Positions 7,193 through 15,502 of a DNA stretch of 64,000 bases are shown piece after piece. The stretch's first letter is position 1. Each line of letters begins with the position of its first letter. Under the pieces are notes generated by a model. The model saw nothing but the letters and a program-made list of their open reading frames with translations, was not told the origin of the DNA and searched no databases. Made by a program: the position numbers and the translations under genes. Where the stretch lies: assembly GCA_030688685.1 (NCBI GenBank), contig JAUYJF010000006.1, positions 120 to 64,119 of the forward strand, in the 5' to 3' direction. The DNA is from Candidatus Yanofskybacteria bacterium (GTDB lineage: Bacteria > Patescibacteriota > Minisyncoccia > Minisyncoccales > UBA10102).

Positions 7193-7420
7193 TTACTTTT
7201 TATCGCGATACACAATTCTCCCTTTTGTCTGGTCATACGGGCTCATTTCTACCGTAACCCGGTCTCCCGGGAGAATGCGAATCCTATGGACAACCAGCTT
7301 GCCAGAAAGATACGCGTGAATTTCTCTCTCGTCATCCAGGCGAACGCGAAAACGAAGGCTGGGAAGTGTTTCAATGACTTCACCGCTCACTCGAAGTTCT
7401 TGTTTGGATTGATCCGCCAT
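7193..7420 (-). CDS. infA: translation initiation factor IF-1
   Basis: S1-like IF-1 sequence (GRIVYRDKK at the C-terminus). Confidence 0.95.
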
Positions 7421-9814: not shown

Positions 9815-11689
9815 TTACCCGTTCAGCCGCGCTTTTATGCGCCGAATGCCCGAAGACACAGCCTCTTCCTTTATAATTTTGAATACACCCAGCTCTTTGG
9901 TGTTCTGCGCGTGCGGTCCTCCGCAGAACTCCTTGCTGAATGCTTTTCCTTCCTTGTCCTGGGCAATATACACAGACACCACATCCCCGTATTTGACCCC
10001 GAATTCCATTTCAGCTCCCAATTTCAGAGCTTCCTCCTTTCGCATCTCTTTGCGCACCATATCAAGCTCCTCTTGGATCTTGGCATTCACGAGGTCTTCC
10101 ACTTGCTGAATCTGATCTTGGGTAAGTTTTGCAGGATAAGAGAAGTCAAGGCGCAGGCGTTCCGCGGTAATATTGCTCCCCCGCTGATGCACGTGGTCTC
10201 CAAGAATCTCTCGCAATGCCGCCAGCGTCAGATGGTGGGCGGTATGCAGTTTTGTCGTTTCGTAAGAAGTATCAGCCAAACCTCCCTTAAACTTGCCCGC
10301 GGAAGAGGTGCGGGAGAGCTCACGGTGCTCTTCTAAGAGCTTGCTGAACTCCTCCTTTTCAAGACCCATCCCCTCGCGTTCCGCGATTTCCTCCACCAGT
10401 TCAATGGGAAATCCATGGGTTGTAAAAAGAATGAACGCGTCCTGCCCCGAAACAACATTTCCTTTCTGGCGAATATGCTCTAAGAGTTTTAATCCTGTTT
10501 CCAAGGTTTTCGCGAATTTCTTTGCCTCCAGAGTGAGAATAATTCCAATCTCTTCCCGCTTCTGGGCGAGCTCCGGGTATGAGGATTTATAGAATTCAAT
10601 GTACGAGGATCCGATCTCAGAGATCCAGTTTGTTTCCTGTACACCCAATTGTCTTCCCTTAATCACAGACCTCCGAATAAGGCGGCGGAGAATGTATCCC
10701 CGCTCTTTATTGGAAGGCAGTACTCCGTCTGAAATCATCATAACAGAGCCTCGGATGTGGTCTGCGATCACGCGGAACGCCTCTTTGTTTTGCGCGTAGG
10801 GAATTCCCGCAACCTGTTCAATGGTCAGTAAGGCTTTTTGGAAAATATCCAGTTGAAATACGTCAGAATTTCCGGAAAGAGCGGCGGCAATCCGTTCCAG
10901 TCCTCCGCCAAAGTCCACGTTCCGCTGGGGCAGTTTTCCAAACGACCCGTCTTCTGCTTTCCGGTACTCCATGAACACAGAATTGCAGATTTCCATGAAT
11001 CTGCCGCAGTCGCAGTTTGGATGACATTCTTTCCCAAACGCGAGATTGTGCGGAGTATCCTCAAACTCATAGAATATTTCAGAATCAGGGCCGCCCGGCT
11101 CCCCCGTCGGCATCTTTTCAGGGACGCCAGATCTGCTCCACCAGTTTTTCTTGGAATCGTATAAGAAGATTCTTCCTCCCTGCATTCCTTTTTCGCTCCC
11201 CTGCTGTTCTGTTCCCAATTCCACCGCCTTTGCCTTAATCCCTTTTTCTTGGAACAGCTGCTTCCAAATCTCTATGGATTCTTCGTCCTTTGGTATTCCC
11301 AAGCGCGCGTCTCCCGCGAACGCCGTCACAGAGAGTTTTTCAGGATTGAAACCCAGCTCATCTGTCAAAAATGAAAAAACCCAGGGAAGCTGTTCCTGCT
11401 TAAAATACGCCCCGAGAGACCAGTTCCCCAGCATTTCAAAGAATGTGGTGTGCCGGTTATCTCCAACTTCATCAATATCTTCCGCGCGGAAGCACTTCTG
11501 GGAATTCACCAACCGCGTTCCCAGCGGATGCTTTTGCCCCAATAGATACGGCAAAAGCGGCTGCATGCCAGATCCCGTAAACAGAGTGGTGGGGTCGTTC
11601 TCTGGCACAAGCGAAGAAGAGGGAATAACAGTATGCCCTCTCTTCTGATAGAAGTCTAAGAACTTTTGCCGCACCTCGTTTGAATTCAT
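9815..11689 (-). CDS. alaS: alanine--tRNA ligase, short form (624 aa) lacking the C-terminal C-Ala domain
   Basis: Class II AlaRS N-terminal catalytic core (FTGSGMQP, CFRAEDIDE) is present. The editing domain HxxxH...CGG.H motifs are present (HTAHHLTLAAL, CGGPHAQNT). Canonical bacterial AlaRS is about 870 aa. Confidence 0.9.
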   Translation of the reverse strand: MNSNEVRQKFLDFYQKRGHTVIPSSSLVPENDPTTLFTGSGMQPLLPYLLGQKHPLGTRLVNSQKCFRAEDIDEVGDNRHTTFFEMLGNWSLGAYFKQEQLPWVFSFLTDELGFNPEKLSVTAFAGDARLGIPKDEESIEIWKQLFQEKGIKAKAVELGTEQQGSEKGMQGGRIFLYDSKKNWWSRSGVPEKMPTGEPGGPDSEIFYEFEDTPHNLAFGKECHPNCDCGRFMEICNSVFMEYRKAEDGSFGKLPQRNVDFGGGLERIAAALSGNSDVFQLDIFQKALLTIEQVAGIPYAQNKEAFRVIADHIRGSVMMISDGVLPSNKERGYILRRLIRRSVIKGRQLGVQETNWISEIGSSYIEFYKSSYPELAQKREEIGIILTLEAKKFAKTLETGLKLLEHIRQKGNVVSGQDAFILFTTHGFPIELVEEIAEREGMGLEKEEFSKLLEEHRELSRTSSAGKFKGGLADTSYETTKLHTAHHLTLAALREILGDHVHQRGSNITAERLRLDFSYPAKLTQDQIQQVEDLVNAKIQEELDMVRKEMRKEEALKLGAEMEFGVKYGDVVSVYIAQDKEGKAFSKEFCGGPHAQNTKELGVFKIIKEEAVSSGIRRIKARLNG

Positions 11690-11705
11690 TGCTTTAATGT
11701 ATCAT

Positions 11706-11740
11706 AAAAAAAGCATCCCGTTTAGTTTTTAGAGGGATGC
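11706..11740 (-). terminator. intrinsic terminator within the alaS leader, 17 nt upstream of the alaS ATG
   Basis: On the minus strand the sequence is GCAUCCC-ucuaaaaacuaaac-GGGAUGC-UUUUUUU. There is no room for a promoter between it and the ATG at 11689. Confidence 0.6.
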
Positions 11741-12018
11741 GATATAGTCTCCGCAGAGCTGAGAGCCAGGACAGAGCTAATGCGGATCAAGAAGTCCTAG
11801 CGAGGAGAGAGATTTCCGCTATACCCCCTCATCCGATTCCGTCCTGTCTCTGCAGCTCTCCAGAGGCTACCATGGTGTAACTCACCCTAATCTAGTTTTC
11901 CAAACAACTCCTGTTGAACTTTTATCACAGTTGAAGTTCTTCAACTTCAGTCAGGATAAAAACTCAATTGGAGGGGGCAGACATAAAGGATTGGACTTTC
12001 CTGCCTGCCCCAAAAAGA
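11741..12018 (-). promoter_or_regulatory. highly structured alaS 5' leader (candidate attenuator, T-box-like or other cis-regulatory RNA)
   Basis: There are nested inverted repeats. One is a 5' hairpin GGGGCAG...CUGCCCC. Another is the palindrome AGUUGAAGAACUUCAACU. The largest is an imperfect long hairpin of about 140 nt (CCUCUGGAGAGCUGCAGAGACAGGACGG ... GCUCUGUCCUGGCUCUCAGCUCUGCGGAG). The segment AGAUUAGGGUGAG resembles the T-box AAUUAGGGUGG core but is not next to the terminator. Confidence 0.4.
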
Positions 12019-12333
12019 TTATAAGTGCGTTCTCGCAGGATACAAGCGCACCACCTTTTTTGCGATGCATGCTTCGCCGAATTTTTCTTTCCAGGCTTCA
12101 ACAATCTCATCGCTGTTCTGCCCGGCCTCAATACGAGGTAGAACGAATTCGCGGGAGAGTCGTGCAGACGAAGGCACGACGCACCGCAGTTCGCATGCGC
12201 GCTTGTGAAGCGGCATGAGAACTTGCATGGCAATGGCCCATTGCCGAGCCATTGCCACTTCCTGGAATGTCGGCATGAATGGTGGACATTCTCCTAGAAT
12301 GTCCATTACAGTAGATGCCACCGACTCCGACAT
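12019..12333 (-). CDS. hypothetical small protein (104 aa)
   Basis: It has an AAGGAG RBS 6 nt upstream of the ATG. It is in an island of small genes and no family was recognised. Confidence 0.55.
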   Translation of the reverse strand: MSESVASTVMDILGECPPFMPTFQEVAMARQWAIAMQVLMPLHKRACELRCVVPSSARLSREFVLPRIEAGQNSDEIVEAWKEKFGEACIAKKVVRLYPARTHL

Positions 12334-12468
12334 TTTCTCTCCTTTCGTTTTTTCTTTCGGGCAATAAGCCCTAAAACATTTCTGCTCAAGAACTTATTGC
12401 CCAAAAGAAATCTATTTTTGAGTCAAAGAACTGCTTCCTCCTGTTGAATCTCCAAGTTTCCTTAGAAA

Positions 12469-12535
12469 CTCAATGAGAGTGGGAAGGGGCGCAAGGTCGT
12501 GCAGACCTCGATCCCTTCCCTTGTTTACCTCCTTT
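12469..12535 (-). repeat. conserved intergenic hairpin element, copy 1 (plus strand: CTCAATGAGAGT-GGGAAGGG...CCCTTCCC-TTGTTTACCTCCT)
   Basis: It shares GGGAAGGG/CCCTTCCC stem arms and the flanking CTCAATrAGAGT and TTTACCTCCT with copy 2 at 12897-12958. Each copy lies just downstream of a small minus-strand gene. The element includes an AGGAGGUAAA motif on the minus strand. Confidence 0.6.
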
Positions 12536-12546
12536 CTGCGGGGATG

Positions 12547-12855
12547 CTACCCCGCGTCGCTGATTGTAGCGTGTGGAAGGCGATGAAACGCCTCCCGCAA
12601 CTTCTCCGCCTGCTCCTCAGCAAGGACGCCCCTGCTGACGAGCTCCGGAAATATACTAACAAAAAACACATCCCCGCCGTCATCATACATATCTTCGTAG
12701 TAGAGGATTTGATTCTCCTCTACTACCACCGTTCCCTTCTCGTCATGGAACTGGAGTGTCTCCAGTCCCGGAATGACGTCGGGGTTGATGTCCGGAAAGG
12801 CGGCCACGAAATCCGCCTTTCGGACAAGTGTTATGTGCGATCCTCTGTAGGGCAT
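12547..12855 (-). CDS. small acidic hypothetical protein (102 aa)
   Basis: A GGAGG RBS is 5 nt upstream of the ATG. The sequence is D/E-rich. It has weak paralogy to 12950..13306 (YYEDMYDDGGDVFFVSIFPE versus YNGYAIATVVAEDVKEDRFFPGGE). Confidence 0.6.
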   Translation of the reverse strand: MPYRGSHITLVRKADFVAAFPDINPDVIPGLETLQFHDEKGTVVVEENQILYYEDMYDDGGDVFFVSIFPELVSRGVLAEEQAEKLREAFHRLPHATISDAG

Positions 12856-12896
12856 TTTGCCCTCCTATGAACCCCCAACAGTATAGTAATTGGGGG

Positions 12897-12958
12897 CTCA
12901 ATAAGAGTGGGAAGGGAAGCCGGAGTGCACCGACGATTCCCTTCCCCATTTACCTCCT
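12897..12958 (-). repeat. conserved intergenic hairpin element, copy 2
   Basis: CTCAATAAGAGT-GGGAAGGG-aagccggagtgcaccgacgatt-CCCTTCCC-CATTTACCTCCT. The stop codon of the upstream gene lies inside the AGGAGGTAAA motif of the element. Confidence 0.6.
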
Positions 12959-13306
12959 CCACCAACGCCACCACCTGCGCCGCCGCTTCAGGCGACGCAG
13001 CAGAATGGGATGAATTTGAATTTCAAGAATCACTATGCATGCGATCTTTCCGAAGCGGTCTTCACCGCCCGGAAAGAACCTATCCTCTTTAACATCTTCC
13101 GCTACCACAGTGGCTATGGCATAGCCGTTGTAGTTGTACGAAAAGATGTCGGGTACATATTGATCGTCCTCCAGTCCTCTGGAAAGACGATAAGCCCACC
13201 ACCTCGTCCTCTCTAGCGAGAGCGAAAAGTGGTGATACTCCCCAACCTCGTGGGGGACGTTCCCCGCGGAGGTGAGGGGAACAACCCGGAATCCTTGCGT
13301 GGTCAT
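12950..13306 (-). CDS. small hypothetical protein (118 aa) with an Arg/Trp-rich C-terminal tail encoded by the repeat element
   Basis: A GAAGGAGG RBS precedes the ATG at 13306. The C-terminus RRLKRRRRWWRWWRR is read through repeat copy 2. Confidence 0.55.
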   Translation of the reverse strand: MTTQGFRVVPLTSAGNVPHEVGEYHHFSLSLERTRWWAYRLSRGLEDDQYVPDIFSYNYNGYAIATVVAEDVKEDRFFPGGEDRFGKIACIVILEIQIHPILLRRLKRRRRWWRWWRR

Positions 13307-13393
13307 TCCTCGCCTCCTTCGGAGATCTTAATTTAATTTTGAAAGGTACTTCTTTCCCCTTCCCAAAAATACTTTTTCTAGAAAAGAATCTTT

Positions 13394-13439
13394 GGGAAAA
13401 GGAGCAGGCGCAAACGTAGCTTATTTACAACCTGCTCCA
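13394..13439 (-). terminator. intrinsic terminator immediately downstream of tRNA-Glu
   Basis: The GGAGCAGG/CCTGCTCC 8-bp stem is followed on the minus strand by TTTTCCC. Confidence 0.6.
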
Positions 13440-13448
13440 AAAAGTGCT

Positions 13449-13522
13449 CTGGTGGGGGCGAGGAGATTCGAGCTCCCGCTTCCGATGTGAAAGGCCGGTG
13501 ACCTTCCCGTAGTCGACGCCCC
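13449..13522 (-). tRNA. tRNA-Glu (anticodon UUC), CCA encoded
   Basis: My manual fold gives a 7-bp acceptor stem GGGGGCG/CGCCCCC, U8, a D-arm GACU/GGUC, the anticodon loop CUUUCAC (identical to the E. coli tRNA-Glu loop), a T-arm GGGAG-CUCGAAU-CUCCU, discriminator A and CCA. Length is 74 nt. Confidence 0.8.
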
Positions 13523-13641
13523 CACCGTAATGTGCTTGCTCCCGCGGTCCTTCCGGTGACTCCCCACCAGATTTCCGCTCATCGCGCGGAGCTTGCGCGC
13601 CCTGGTCTGACCCGCCAGGGAGGATTTTGACTGCGGTCTGC

Positions 13642-13983
13642 CTAGTCGACCACGTCCACCAGCACGTCCACCAGGCGAAAAGTGAACGTGGCGGCAGAGA
13701 TTTCCGCGTCGGTGAACTCGCGCGTCTCGCGCGGAACACCGGAAATCTCGGCCACTAGGCAGGAGTCCCCCGCCTCCAGGCGAATCCGCCCGCCCTTTGC
13801 AGAGCGAACATCAACGTCCAGATGCCGGGACACCGCGTCCAGGGTGTTCCCGTGGCTAGGGTTAGCCACGTTCTCCACTCCGGCGCGGATGAACTCCGCC
13901 GCTTCCTCGGGCGTTACCGTCCGAACGGCCACTTGGCCGTCGGGCAGCATGGAAAGCCCGAGGGTGGTATTGAAATACCTCAA
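13642..13983 (-). CDS. DUF1874 family protein (STIV B116 / AcrIII-1 / Crn2 ring-nuclease family)
   Basis: It aligns along its length with B116-like proteins. FNTTLGLSML matches FLTNAFSINML, NVANPSHGNTLDAVSRHL matches NAIGHDSTINLVNTL (with the conserved His), and RIRLEAGDSCLVAEI matches KVKMNEGDEALIIMI. The start was placed at TTG 13983, which has a perfect AGGAGG 5 nt upstream. The ORF track begins at 14109. Confidence 0.6.
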   Translation of the reverse strand: MRYFNTTLGLSMLPDGQVAVRTVTPEEAAEFIRAGVENVANPSHGNTLDAVSRHLDVDVRSAKGGRIRLEAGDSCLVAEISGVPRETREFTDAEISAATFTFRLVDVLVDVVD

Positions 13984-14332
13984 TTTTCCTCCTTTACCGG
14001 CATCCCATCTCGTTGCGGACTTATCGCGACAAGTTCTAGAGAACCGGAAATACTCGCTCTGTTTCCGGAGCGGCGAGCTGAACACTAATTTCTCTTGGAT
14101 CTCTTTCAATGAATCAAATACTGCAGATCAGATTAACTAATGCTCACTTCGCCGCTCCGGATGCATTTCAAAGAACAAACGGCTCCCTATATTGTTTGGA
14201 GAGAGCCGTTCAAGCAAAATTCGCTGCTATTTGCTAATCCTGCCTCTCTCCTTGCAGAACCAGCCCCTTTTTCTGTATTGACGCCAATATAACATACTAT
14301 TAAGAAAATGTCAAGTGCTGCGTGATGGTTCA

Positions 14333-14381
14333 ATAAAAAGGGGGCGAGAGCGCAAAACAACACGCGCGTTCATCGCCCCCC
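14333..14381 (-). terminator. intrinsic terminator after the 14398..14787 gene
   Basis: The GGGGGCGA/TCGCCCCC stem is followed on the minus strand by TTTTT. Confidence 0.6.
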
Positions 14382-14397
14382 TTCAGTAACCAAAGAG

Positions 14398-14787
14398 CTA
14401 GCTTGCGTAAACTGCGGATACGCTGTTTTGGAGTATCCACAAGAGCCGCCAGAGAGCTCCCTCTCCTTCCCTAAGCAGTATTCGTTCCTGGGCATCATCA
14501 ATGGCAATTTCCAATCGCCATTCCCCTTCAGGCTCCTTCGTGAAAACCCATAACTCCCCAGCGGTCTCAGGAGGCTCCATTACAAGGCTGTATACCTTGC
14601 CTGGAATTGAGACTACATCTATGGATATGTGACCTCCCCAAGAAGCCCGTAAGACGTACGAGGAGAGGGCTGCTTGCAGGCGCGCGATTGCCTCAAGCAC
14701 TGTTTCCAGGTTTTCCTGAGAGACTTCCAGGGAACCTCCGCCCCGGACAAACTTCTCCACCACCGCGCCAGCGTCGCGAGTAACCAT
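14398..14787 (-). CDS. hypothetical protein (129 aa)
   Basis: A GGAGG RBS is 5 nt upstream of the ATG and a terminator follows downstream. No family was recognised. Confidence 0.55.
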   Translation of the reverse strand: MVTRDAGAVVEKFVRGGGSLEVSQENLETVLEAIARLQAALSSYVLRASWGGHISIDVVSIPGKVYSLVMEPPETAGELWVFTKEPEGEWRLEIAIDDAQERILLREGEGALWRLLWILQNSVSAVYAS

Positions 14788-15085
14788 CTGTGCCTCCGTA
14801 TGTTTTTTGAGGATAAAACCCCTGTTGAATCCTCATCCATAGGATGAGAACTTAATGGGAGCGAGCAGGCGAAGGTATAATGAGTACTCTCCGCCTGCCC
14901 TTGTGTGCTACTTGGCAGGAGCGTTTTCTCCCTGCTTTTTACGGCAGGGAGCAAAAGCTCTTTGCCATGTTCTTGCCTTGTACCACGACACGCGGCTGCG
15001 TGGCACAAGGAAAGAGTATCCACTGAGCCAGTTCACCGTAACCATCATTTCTACCACCTCATCTGCCCGTATCTGCCATGGGCAA

Positions 15086-15400
15086 TCATTTACCGCATGC
15101 CTGCCGAAGAACTTCCACATCCTCTGGGCTGGGCCAATCGGCATACTGCCACATATGTGCTGGCGGGTGGTCGGCCAGCACAATTCCCGTCTCTCTGTCC
15201 ATTATCCAGAGAGTCCGGCCCCCCGCCGGGTTTATGATGGCTGCAACCATTACCACCCGATTAAAGGGCAGCGGAGCACCCGGCACAGATGCAAGGCGCA
15301 CAATGCGATCGCCATCCACCTCGTAGGTGCCCGGCGACAGTAGGCGTCGCCATTCCCAATCGTGCGCTTGCTGCCTGGTACTTTCCACAATGGCAGTCAT
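15086..15400 (-). CDS. hypothetical protein (~104 aa)
   Basis: The start was placed at the internal ATG, which has a GGGAGGGGAG RBS. The ORF track begins at 15490. Confidence 0.5.
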   Translation of the reverse strand: MTAIVESTRQQAHDWEWRRLLSPGTYEVDGDRIVRLASVPGAPLPFNRVVMVAAIINPAGGRTLWIMDRETGIVLADHPPAHMWQYADWPSPEDVEVLRQACGK

Positions 15401-15502
15401 AATACTCCCCTCCCGCGCATATCTTATGGAAAGGTCTATACTAGAAGTATCCCTTTCCCACGTTTTGTCAACCCCCCATGGAAAACTCACGAATTCTGCT
15501 CT

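Follow-up and report, generated by a model that had tools for sequence, protein, structure and literature searches.

A two-hairpin repeat flanking small orphan genes in a lineage-specific mnmA–alaS island of Candidatus Yanofskybacteria

Gene Content of the mnmA–alaS Island

The window analyzed here, that is, the whole 64-kb stretch of contig JAUYJF010000006.1 from Candidatus Yanofskybacteria bacterium (GCA_030688685.1), contains four copies of a structured repeat of about 95–105 nt, hereafter called the module, which are all located in a lineage-specific block of 3.8 kb between mnmA and alaS (11690..15502, minus strand). The module comprises two hairpins (HP1 and HP2) and is a genuine, non-chance structured repeat that apparently has not been described so far. 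Almost all genes of the window are encoded on the minus strand. On this strand mnmA (16552–15503) is followed by a 134-aa open reading frame (ORF), a 129-aa ORF (14787–14398), a 113-aa ORF with a weak B116-like match (13983–13642), a tRNA-Glu(UUC) gene with encoded CCA (13450..13523), ORFs of 118 aa (Q8P39_00725; 12950..13306), 102 aa (p102, Q8P39_00720; 12547..12855) and 104 aa (Q8P39_00715, annotated as 95 aa; 12019..12333), and alaS (11689–9815). The block thus holds six small ORFs and the tRNA gene in addition to the four modules, and the window elsewhere carries core chromosomal genes (rpoA, secY, L2, L3, tuf, ATP synthase and tpiA).

For the 118-, 102- and 104-aa ORFs the annotated frame scored best of all six frames in codon usage. 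The score of p102 (0.30) is typical in comparison to the long genes of the window (0.24 ± 0.11), and those of the 104- and 118-aa ORFs are low (about 0.06). An earlier interpretation made from the letters of the window only (the sequence-only reading) had described an array of weakly paralogous small acidic genes. This description did not hold, because BLASTP found no similarity between the 102- and 118-aa proteins at E ≤ 100 and only the 102-aa protein is acidic (pI 4.5; 7.7 for the 104-aa and 9.7 for the 118-aa protein). The 118- and 104-aa proteins are orphans that had no relative among 5.8 billion sequences in a word-indexed homologue search. The C-terminus of the 118-aa ORF is RRLKRRRRWWRWWRR, an Arg/Trp-rich tail encoded by a purine-rich run (12950–12997, minus) that continues straight into the first module downstream, and might have arisen by read-through instead of being the native end of the protein.

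For comparison, 30 related Parcubacteria loci retrieved via their alanyl-tRNA synthetase (AlaRS; 45–58% identity) have mnmA and alaS in this order and orientation, with mnmA upstream. The gap between the two genes is 23 nt to 8.9 kb and shorter than 900 nt in 18 of the 30, and no tRNA gene and no relative of the six small ORFs was found in the interval. The block absent from these loci therefore represents an insertion or a variable region at a recurrent hotspot, and the mnmA–alaS interval appears, from this comparison of gene order, to be a recurrent insertion hotspot in Parcubacteria. The block genes have a higher G + C content at third codon positions (GC3; 0.62–0.72) than the long genes of the window (0.55). 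Integration at the tRNA itself was dropped as an explanation since the 3′ end of tRNA-Glu is not repeated in the window. In several of the 30 loci (within L011–L078) the interval contains repeated hairpins together with accessory genes coding for a uracil-DNA glycosylase, a PD-(D/E)XK nuclease and an M3 peptidase.

The Repeated Two-Hairpin Module

The window contains exactly two matches to the 20-mer CTCAATRAGAGTGGGAAGGG, located at 12469 and 12897, as compared to a mean of 0.02 matches in shuffled sequences, none of which (0/100) reached two. Likewise, the arm pattern GGGAAGGG-N(10–40)-CCCTTCCC was found exactly twice with zero expected. The two elements with conserved arms that the sequence-only reading had pointed out at these positions are thus confirmed, as is their location downstream of small genes: on the minus strand, the element designated E1 comes after the 118-aa ORF and E2 after the 102-aa ORF. 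Other parts of this description had to be extended. A hairpin is indeed present, but the proposed size of about 60 nt is too small for the complete unit, which includes a second conserved hairpin, and the number of two copies is too low, as motif searches located the further copies E3 (hairpins at 11908–12011) and Ea (14818–14900).

On the gene-sense (minus) strand the order of parts is stop codon, the Shine–Dalgarno (SD)-like box AGGAGGT(T)AAA, the GC-rich HP1 and, directly behind it, HP2. In E1 and E2 the first part reads AGGAGGTAAA-nn(n)-GGGAAGGG-CCCTTCCC-ACTCTYATTGAG, where the two arms enclose an inner stem and the UGCAC loop. The HP1 loops diverge between E1 and E2, as had been proposed, yet each forms an inner stem of its own and the apical UGCAC is common to both. 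HP2 has a CUCY/GGAG base, in which the conserved ACUCU pairs with a downstream SD-like GGAG, followed by a 2 × 2 internal loop, a conserved UUGAG/UUCAA stem with an invariant G·U pair, and a variable top of 18 to 43 nt. A small ORF beginning after AGGAGG was considered and dropped, since an ATG is present at this place in E1 only. The linker ACUCUUAUU presumably resembles the NusB/NusE boxA (GCUCUUUA), but a boxA role is disfavored by its predicted pairing within the module.

E1 (12862..12958, minus) is situated between the 118-aa and 102-aa genes. Its flank AGGAGGTAAAT (12958–12948) holds the TAA stop of the 118-aa ORF, which lies in AGGAGGTAA and thus inside the element, as the sequence-only reading had noted. 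HP1 of E1 (GGGGAAGGGAA/UUCCCUUCCC; 12947–12909) contains the inner stem and UGCAC loop, and HP2 (ACUCU-UA-UUGAG-top-UUCA-UA-GGAG; 12908–12862) ends in a GGAG that is the ribosome-binding site (RBS) of the 102-aa gene. E2 (12438..12533, minus), between the 102-aa and 104-aa genes, consists of the flank AGGAGGTAAACAA (12533–12521), HP1 (12520–12481) and HP2 (CUCU-CA-UUGAG..UUCAA-CA-GGAG; 12479–12438). E3 (11908..12017, minus) lies 3′ of the 104-aa gene and is composed of HP1 (GGGGCAGGCAG/CUGCCCC; 12011–11974), which is related to the tRNA terminator stem, and HP2 (11973–11908) with a long variable top. Ea (14818..14900, minus), upstream of the 129-aa gene, contains HP1 (GGGCAGGCGG/CGCCUGCUC; 14900–14863) and HP2 (GCUCC-CA-UUAAG..UUCAA-CA-GGGGU; 14862–14818). 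In E1, E2, E3 and the two elements of contig L084 (see below) the module starts 0–26 nt and HP1 starts 2–26 nt past the upstream stop codon. Ea is the exception, being located about 180 nt past the stop of the 134-aa ORF.

With a covariance model of HP2, named R1, the four copies were recovered at scores of 58–67 bits (E1, 58.3; E2, 60.2; E3, 67; Ea, 66.5), all within 11900–14872. With filters switched off, the next best score in the 64 kb was 13.6 bits, so that the other 60 kb contain no copy, and a search of 80 Parcubacteria alaS loci (1.0 Mb) with R1 was negative. All four modules have one orientation, which is that of the flanking genes, and neighboring sites are 428 (E1–E2) and 506 nt apart. 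A scan of representative genomes with CTCAATNAGAGTGGGAAGGG, in a collection that does not include the source metagenome-assembled genome, yielded two chance matches, both in Clostridia coding sequence and lacking the partner arm. In Rfam 15 only the tRNA of the region reached its gathering threshold; at E ≤ 5 there were far-sub-threshold chance matches on E1–E3 (scaRNA, CncR1, drum) and miRNA-type matches on generic long hairpins elsewhere. No description of the module was found in the searchable literature.

A further two-hairpin region, E0 (13355..13438, minus), lies 3′ of tRNA-Glu. Its first hairpin (GGAGCAGG/CCUGCUCC, then UUUU) is the canonical tRNA-Glu terminator, whose stem and 5′ flank CTTTTTGGRGCAGG are related to HP1 of E3 and Ea, with a true U-tract in E0 alone. 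The second hairpin is long, contains CCCCTTCCC and lacks the UUGAG/UUCAA motif. The CCCCTTCCC at 13353, which had been taken for a degenerate remnant of the element, is accordingly an arm of a different hairpin (13355–13403) after the tRNA-Glu terminator. Another hairpin of about 60 nt (12351..12410, minus), whose two 18-nt arms are 94% complementary and which is extended in the minimum free energy (MFE) fold, is located downstream of E2 and ahead of the RBS of the 104-aa gene. A similar long hairpin (about 18 bp) is located between HP2 and the next RBS in contig L085 (about 316–372) and is missing in the sister strain L084.

Covariation and Strand Asymmetry

Covariation in HP2 was assessed with six sequences, which are non-independent and stem from two lineages. 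Standard base pairs were found in 95% of the alignment cells as compared to 41–67% when the partners were slid by 1–3 columns. Compensatory double changes occur at four pairs, one G·U pair is invariant, and the observed covariation score was reached in none of 500 shuffles. In HP1, whose pairs were tabulated directly from the sequences, the pairs counted from the base are AU/AU/GC/AU at position 4, GC/GC/GU/AU at position 7, AU/–/GC/GC at position 9 and AU/UG/UA/AU at position 10. Compensatory changes are thus present in both hairpins, although the covariation statistics are weak given the six non-independent HP2 sequences.

The gene-sense strand folds better than its complement in all eight elements compared, by 0.4–13.4 kcal/mol, and contains 1–8 G·U pairs (antisense strand, 0–6). 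Since the sense strand always is the better folded one, the structure is strand-specific and pertains either to RNA or to sense-strand single-stranded DNA (ssDNA). The module probably folds in the mRNA.

Conservation of the Module in a Second Lineage

The word-indexed search with p102 returned p102 alone, whereas a full HMMER scan revealed one true relative, P0004 (96 aa, 43% identity, E = 2.4e-6). This protein and its close variants P0007 and P0008 are encoded on seven short ENA metagenome contigs (L084–L090) of an unrelated lineage, where the p102 homologue gene is flanked by the element on both sides, with a full module upstream and an HP1-only element downstream. The upstream copy directly follows the TGA of an unrelated Cys-rich ORF and reads AGGAGGTTAAAAACA-GGGGAGGGGTCG-TGGT-CGACCTCTCCCC-ACTCTAATTGAG-HP2-TTCAACAGGAG; the downstream copy directly follows the TAG of the homologue gene and reads GAAGGGGTTAAAAAC-GGGAAGAGGAA-loop-TTCCTCTTCCC. 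R1 assigned 66–73 bits to the upstream copies. The neighbors of the p102 family differ by lineage, being the Cys-rich ORF and a convergent trpS on these contigs as opposed to p118 and p104 in the window.

E2 shares 72% identity over 99 nt with the module that precedes the L084 homologue, and E3 shares 81% over 80 nt with positions 221–298 of L085. The p102 and P0004 genes share 54% nucleotide identity, with 6 of 19 fourfold-degenerate sites identical (chance, 0.26), so the synonymous sites of the p102 gene are saturated between the lineages. As the module is 72–81% identical despite this saturation, it is maintained either by selection or by recent transfer and is not a neutral leftover. Together with the compensatory changes across lineages, this supports the view of the sequence-only reading that the hairpin is under structural rather than sequence constraint.

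Ahead of the HP2 top, the sister strains represented by L084 and L085 share 99.6% identity over 242 nt. Differences then follow in the HP2 top itself, in an insert of 110 nt that bears a hairpin, and in about the first 200 nt of the gene, beyond which the two strains are again near-identical. Short HP2 tops (E2, L084) and long ones (E3, L085) both exist in both lineages. These patterns suggest that the modules are points of gene exchange, and recombination would be the cause of the L084/L085 mosaic.

Relation to Terminators and Promoters

HP1 resembles an intrinsic terminator in being GC-rich and, in E1, E2, E3 and both L084 elements, located 2–26 nt past a stop codon, and the tRNA-Glu terminator in E0 has a related stem. 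In E1, E2, E3 and Ea, however, HP1 is followed by ACUCUNAUU or CUCCNAUU and not by a U-run. The tails are ACUCUUAU (E1), ACUCUCAU (E2), CUCCAAUU (E3) and GCUCCCAU (Ea), whereas the ordinary terminators of the window have tails such as UUUUUAUU, UUUUUAAG and UUUUGCUU with 4–7 U in the first 8 nt past the stem. An ordinary intrinsic terminator was thus ruled out on the basis of the missing T-run directly after the HP1 stem, and a terminator scan found no terminator in the region.

A promoter scan of 11500–14500 detected no sigma-70-like site in E1–E3. TTGAG was rejected as a −35 box because its spacing to −10-like hexamers is inconsistent among the copies, with 17 to 43 nt between TTGAG and TTCAAC, and the idea of a promoter cassette was abandoned for the same two reasons, the absence of a sigma-70-like site from the scanned modules and the varying spacing of the conserved boxes. 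The sole strong sigma-70-like promoter of the region (TTGACA-17-TATATT with TG; 14314–14286) lies ahead of the 113-aa gene (13642–14314 including the promoter, minus).

Interpretation of the Module and Alternative Explanations

The closest precedent is provided by the promoter-early stem-loop (PeSL) cassettes of T4-type phages (Arbiol et al., 2010, PMC2839356; Comeau et al., 2014, PMC4122927). PeSLs are repeated between the genes of a hypervariable region, measure about 100 bp, have unrelated orphan ORFs on their flanks and combine a strong sigma-70-like early promoter with a stem-loop acting as terminator or attenuator; recombination between the copies shuffles genes and yields mini-circles (PMC2839356; PMC4122927). 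Similarly, the module is about 100 nt long and flanks orphan ORFs, and its four copies are spread over 3.1 kb of a lineage-specific block. In both systems a G-run/C-run stem-loop occurs, the end of the repeat is close to the downstream SD sequence, and the homology between copies offers a proposed route for gene swaps, in keeping with strain pairs that differ by replacements starting in the module. As for the individual PeSL features, HP1 is a stable GC-rich stem-loop without a U-tract, and indirect hints of shuffling come from the L084/L085 mosaic, which starts at the HP2 top, and from the different neighbors of the p102 family in the two lineages. Unlike PeSLs, the module has no detectable sigma-70-like promoter (E1–E3), contains a second conserved hairpin with an SD-like/anti-SD-like base, and resides in a bacterial core chromosome and not in a phage; there is no sequence homology between the two. 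The module belongs to a known kind of element, repeated regulatory or structural cassettes flanking orphan genes, of which the two-hairpin version found in this member of the candidate phyla radiation (CPR) apparently is undescribed.

By analogy, there is in our estimation about an even chance that the modules are intercistronic RNA structures of the island mRNAs that double as a PeSL-like substrate for homologous recombination. The module would be transcribed on the gene-sense strand within the mRNAs of the small orphan-gene island. HP1 could then serve as an attenuator and/or a barrier to 3′-exonucleases for the upstream cistron, and HP2 as a 5′ stabilizer or insulator, or as a protein-binding site, for the downstream cistron. 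HP2 would be closed by the anti-SD-like/SD-like pairing, which in E1 would occlude the true RBS of the 102-aa gene. At the DNA level, the shared ~100 nt would supply the homology for swapping, duplicating or deleting small genes between modules; recombination is suggested by stretches of tens of nucleotides that hardly differ between the copies, in contrast to the unrelated genes that they separate.

Several points weigh against this reading. The statistics of covariation are weak, as two lineages and six non-independent HP2 sequences contribute to them. G·T pairs are tolerated in ssDNA, too, so that the strand asymmetry cannot distinguish RNA from sense-strand ssDNA. Transcription, the 3′ and 5′ ends and processing are all inferred. 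A uniform role in translational control does not hold, since the sequestered GGAG lies 130–220 nt from the next start codon in E2, E3 and L085. Finally, within this genome the search for copies covered the 64-kb window.

The sequence-only reading had arrived at a different explanation, a phage-derived anti-defence or toxin–immunity island, and we regard this as very unlikely. In such a view the small proteins would be the point and the hairpins mere terminators. The lineage-specific location of the block between conserved neighbors, its elevated GC3, its orphan proteins (one of them acidic) and the weak match of the 113-aa protein to the B116-like family (AcrIII-1) beside a tRNA gene would be in line with such an island; the 113-aa gene itself, next to tRNA-Glu, has a GC3 of 0.72 (long genes, 0.55). 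The match to PF08960 covers profile positions 13–100 of 101 but reaches only 15.6 bits (E = 0.017) against a Pfam cut-off of 26, so the ring-nuclease neighbor that had been postulated remains below threshold, and a comparison with PDB sequences retrieved no B116 or ring-nuclease structure but three unrelated matches (E = 0.5–1.7). The 118-, 102- and 104-aa proteins had no match in PHROGs, PADLOC, Pfam or NCBIfam, and no match was obtained in 50,697 phage records, IMG/VR viral contigs or plasmid records (blastn for phages and plasmids). Three pattern scans and one protein-based scan of the viral contigs were empty except for one chance match inside a phage structural gene. No integrase or tyrosine recombinase was present among the 20 window ORFs of 212–453 aa that were scanned, and there is no att repeat of the tRNA 3′ end. 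The proposed DNA-mimic surface charge could not be judged because single-sequence AlphaFold2 models were too poor (predicted local distance difference test, pLDDT, 46 for the 113-aa protein and 59 for p102); a Foldseek search of the PDB with the low-confidence p102 model gave a best E of 0.99, and a p102-family profile had no match in the PDB. Searches for phage, defence and plasmid functions thus lend no support to an anti-defence, DNA-mimic or toxin–immunity island, and an anti-defence role is unsupported. The lack of paralogy between the 102- and 118-aa proteins also speaks against this view, as does HP1, which lacks the T-run of this genome's terminators, and the second conserved hairpin is left unexplained by it. 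Highly improbable is also the simplest possibility, namely that E1 and E2 are neutral, functionless leftovers of a recent local duplication. Their strong similarity and close spacing would fit, but the flanking ORFs share no similarity, the differences between E1 and E2 are mainly in the loops with stems and flanks intact, and compensatory changes keep the fold in a module conserved in a second lineage with saturated synonymous sites.

Other explanations treat the module as a mobile or recombinogenic repeat. Unlikely, but deserving consideration, is a selfish palindrome comparable to repetitive extragenic palindromic (REP) sequences or miniature inverted-repeat transposable elements (MITEs), which would be mobilized in trans on folded ssDNA by a Y1 (HUH) transposase of the REP-associated tyrosine transposase (RAYT) or IS200/IS605 type and accumulate in a permissive intergenic hotspot without a host function. 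REPs are co-transcribed with the genes they follow, stabilize upstream mRNA and, near a stop codon, affect translation; like the module, REPs, bacterial interspersed mosaic elements (BIMEs) and the REP–RAYT systems of Proteobacteria are repeated extragenic palindromes at gene 3′ ends, and a strand-specific fold with conserved flanks would suit ssDNA recognition. Moreover, RAYT-like arrangements exist in other Parcubacteria loci, where IS200-like Y1 genes lie between identical palindromic hairpins: in L018 (7253–9917) a PF01797 Y1 gene (232 aa, E = 2.5e-6) is accompanied by hairpins at 7253, 7981 and 9897, the third just before alaS, and in L061 (133–952) a Y1 transposase relative with 29% identity to that of L018 is bracketed by identical hairpins. 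In L020 (9183–9943) four related hairpins in both orientations (GTCATTCC..GGAATCCA and GGATTCC..GGAATGAC) surround a 90-aa methylguanine-methyltransferase DNA-binding-domain gene just upstream of alaS. None of these hairpins shares sequence with the module, however, and no Y1 transposase was found in the window (tblastn with the L018 Y1 protein, best E = 0.18). The module is also bipartite and, at about 100 nt including its two hairpins and variable top, far longer than REPs of 20–40 nt, and its four copies in the window are clustered in one 3-kb island in one orientation. BOX elements of Streptococcus and Correia/NEMIS (Neisseria miniature insertion sequence) elements are likewise modular intergenic repeats that form stable RNA folds in mRNAs and can alter the expression of neighboring genes, but tens to hundreds of copies of them are scattered over a genome, which was not seen for the module in the window, and neither were the terminal inverted repeats and TA duplication of Correia elements. 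Quite unlikely, in turn, is a function as cassette-capture recombination site comparable to integron attC, with the unit from stop codon to module exchanged as a promoterless circular cassette. In favor of this, unrelated small ORFs alternate with structured sites that are 428 and 506 nt apart, the structure is kept over the sequence, modules enclose the p102 family in two genomic contexts with different neighbors, HP2 combines a fixed basal stem, an unpaired spacer, a second stem and a variable end, and TTGAGY and GTTCAAC match the TTRRRY and RYYYAAC core patterns. Their order is reversed on both strands, though, with aTTGAGY (TTRRRY) 5′ and GTTCAAC (RYYYAAC) 3′ instead of the attC arrangement 5′-RYYYAAC ... 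GTTRRRY-3′. Integron attC sites recombine via a fold of their bottom strand, the one antisense to the ORFs of the cassettes, whereas in the module the coding strand folds better in 8/8 elements. No extrahelical bases are evident, and HP1 has no attC counterpart. Clusters of attC sites lacking an integrase (CALINs) usually occur in genomes that carry one elsewhere; among the scanned ORFs of the window there was no tyrosine recombinase. A long shot is a novel CPR cassette-exchange system in which a recombinase would read the folded sense-strand HP2, with attC-like layout and opposite polarity, and insert and excise promoterless orphan cassettes at the mnmA–alaS hotspot.

CPR bacteria have tiny genomes and, to our knowledge, few recognized mobile elements and almost no characterized regulatory RNA. 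A module without an entry in Rfam 15 that delimits the orphan genes of a variable island could, if it acts as proposed for an intercistronic RNA structure and recombination substrate, provide a handle on how accessory genes are expressed in these bacteria and on how such genes come and go. Should it indeed be PeSL-like, this shuffling mechanism would extend from T4-type phages to a bacterial chromosome. Given its narrow base of two lineages, the finding is to be taken as a lead and not yet as a result.

Other Features of the alaS Region

The alaS leader (11690–11900, minus) contains a long imperfect hairpin of about 125 nt (11870–11745) and, directly ahead of the alaS ATG, a terminator-like GCAUCCC...GGGAUGC followed by U7 (about 11729–11698). 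A z-score of −4.7 was obtained here, no T-box or other Rfam family matched the leader at E ≤ 5, and it may represent an unrecognized attenuator or the ‘third hairpin’ of module E3. In the Logan contig L001 (SRR13727534), 3,080 nt of the island are identical to the window, followed by an abrupt fall to about 73% identity within alaS (L001 3081–3191; window 11409–11354), which marks a boundary of recombination between strains or, alternatively, a chimeric assembly. The region upstream of alaS in locus L008 (1233–1700) contains three tandem copies resembling the 5′ half of tRNA-Ala (GGGGCCTGTAGTCTAGTGGTACGACGCGGCATTCGCATTGCCGAAG), each followed by a small hairpin, of which the last copy alone is a complete tRNA-Ala(CGC).

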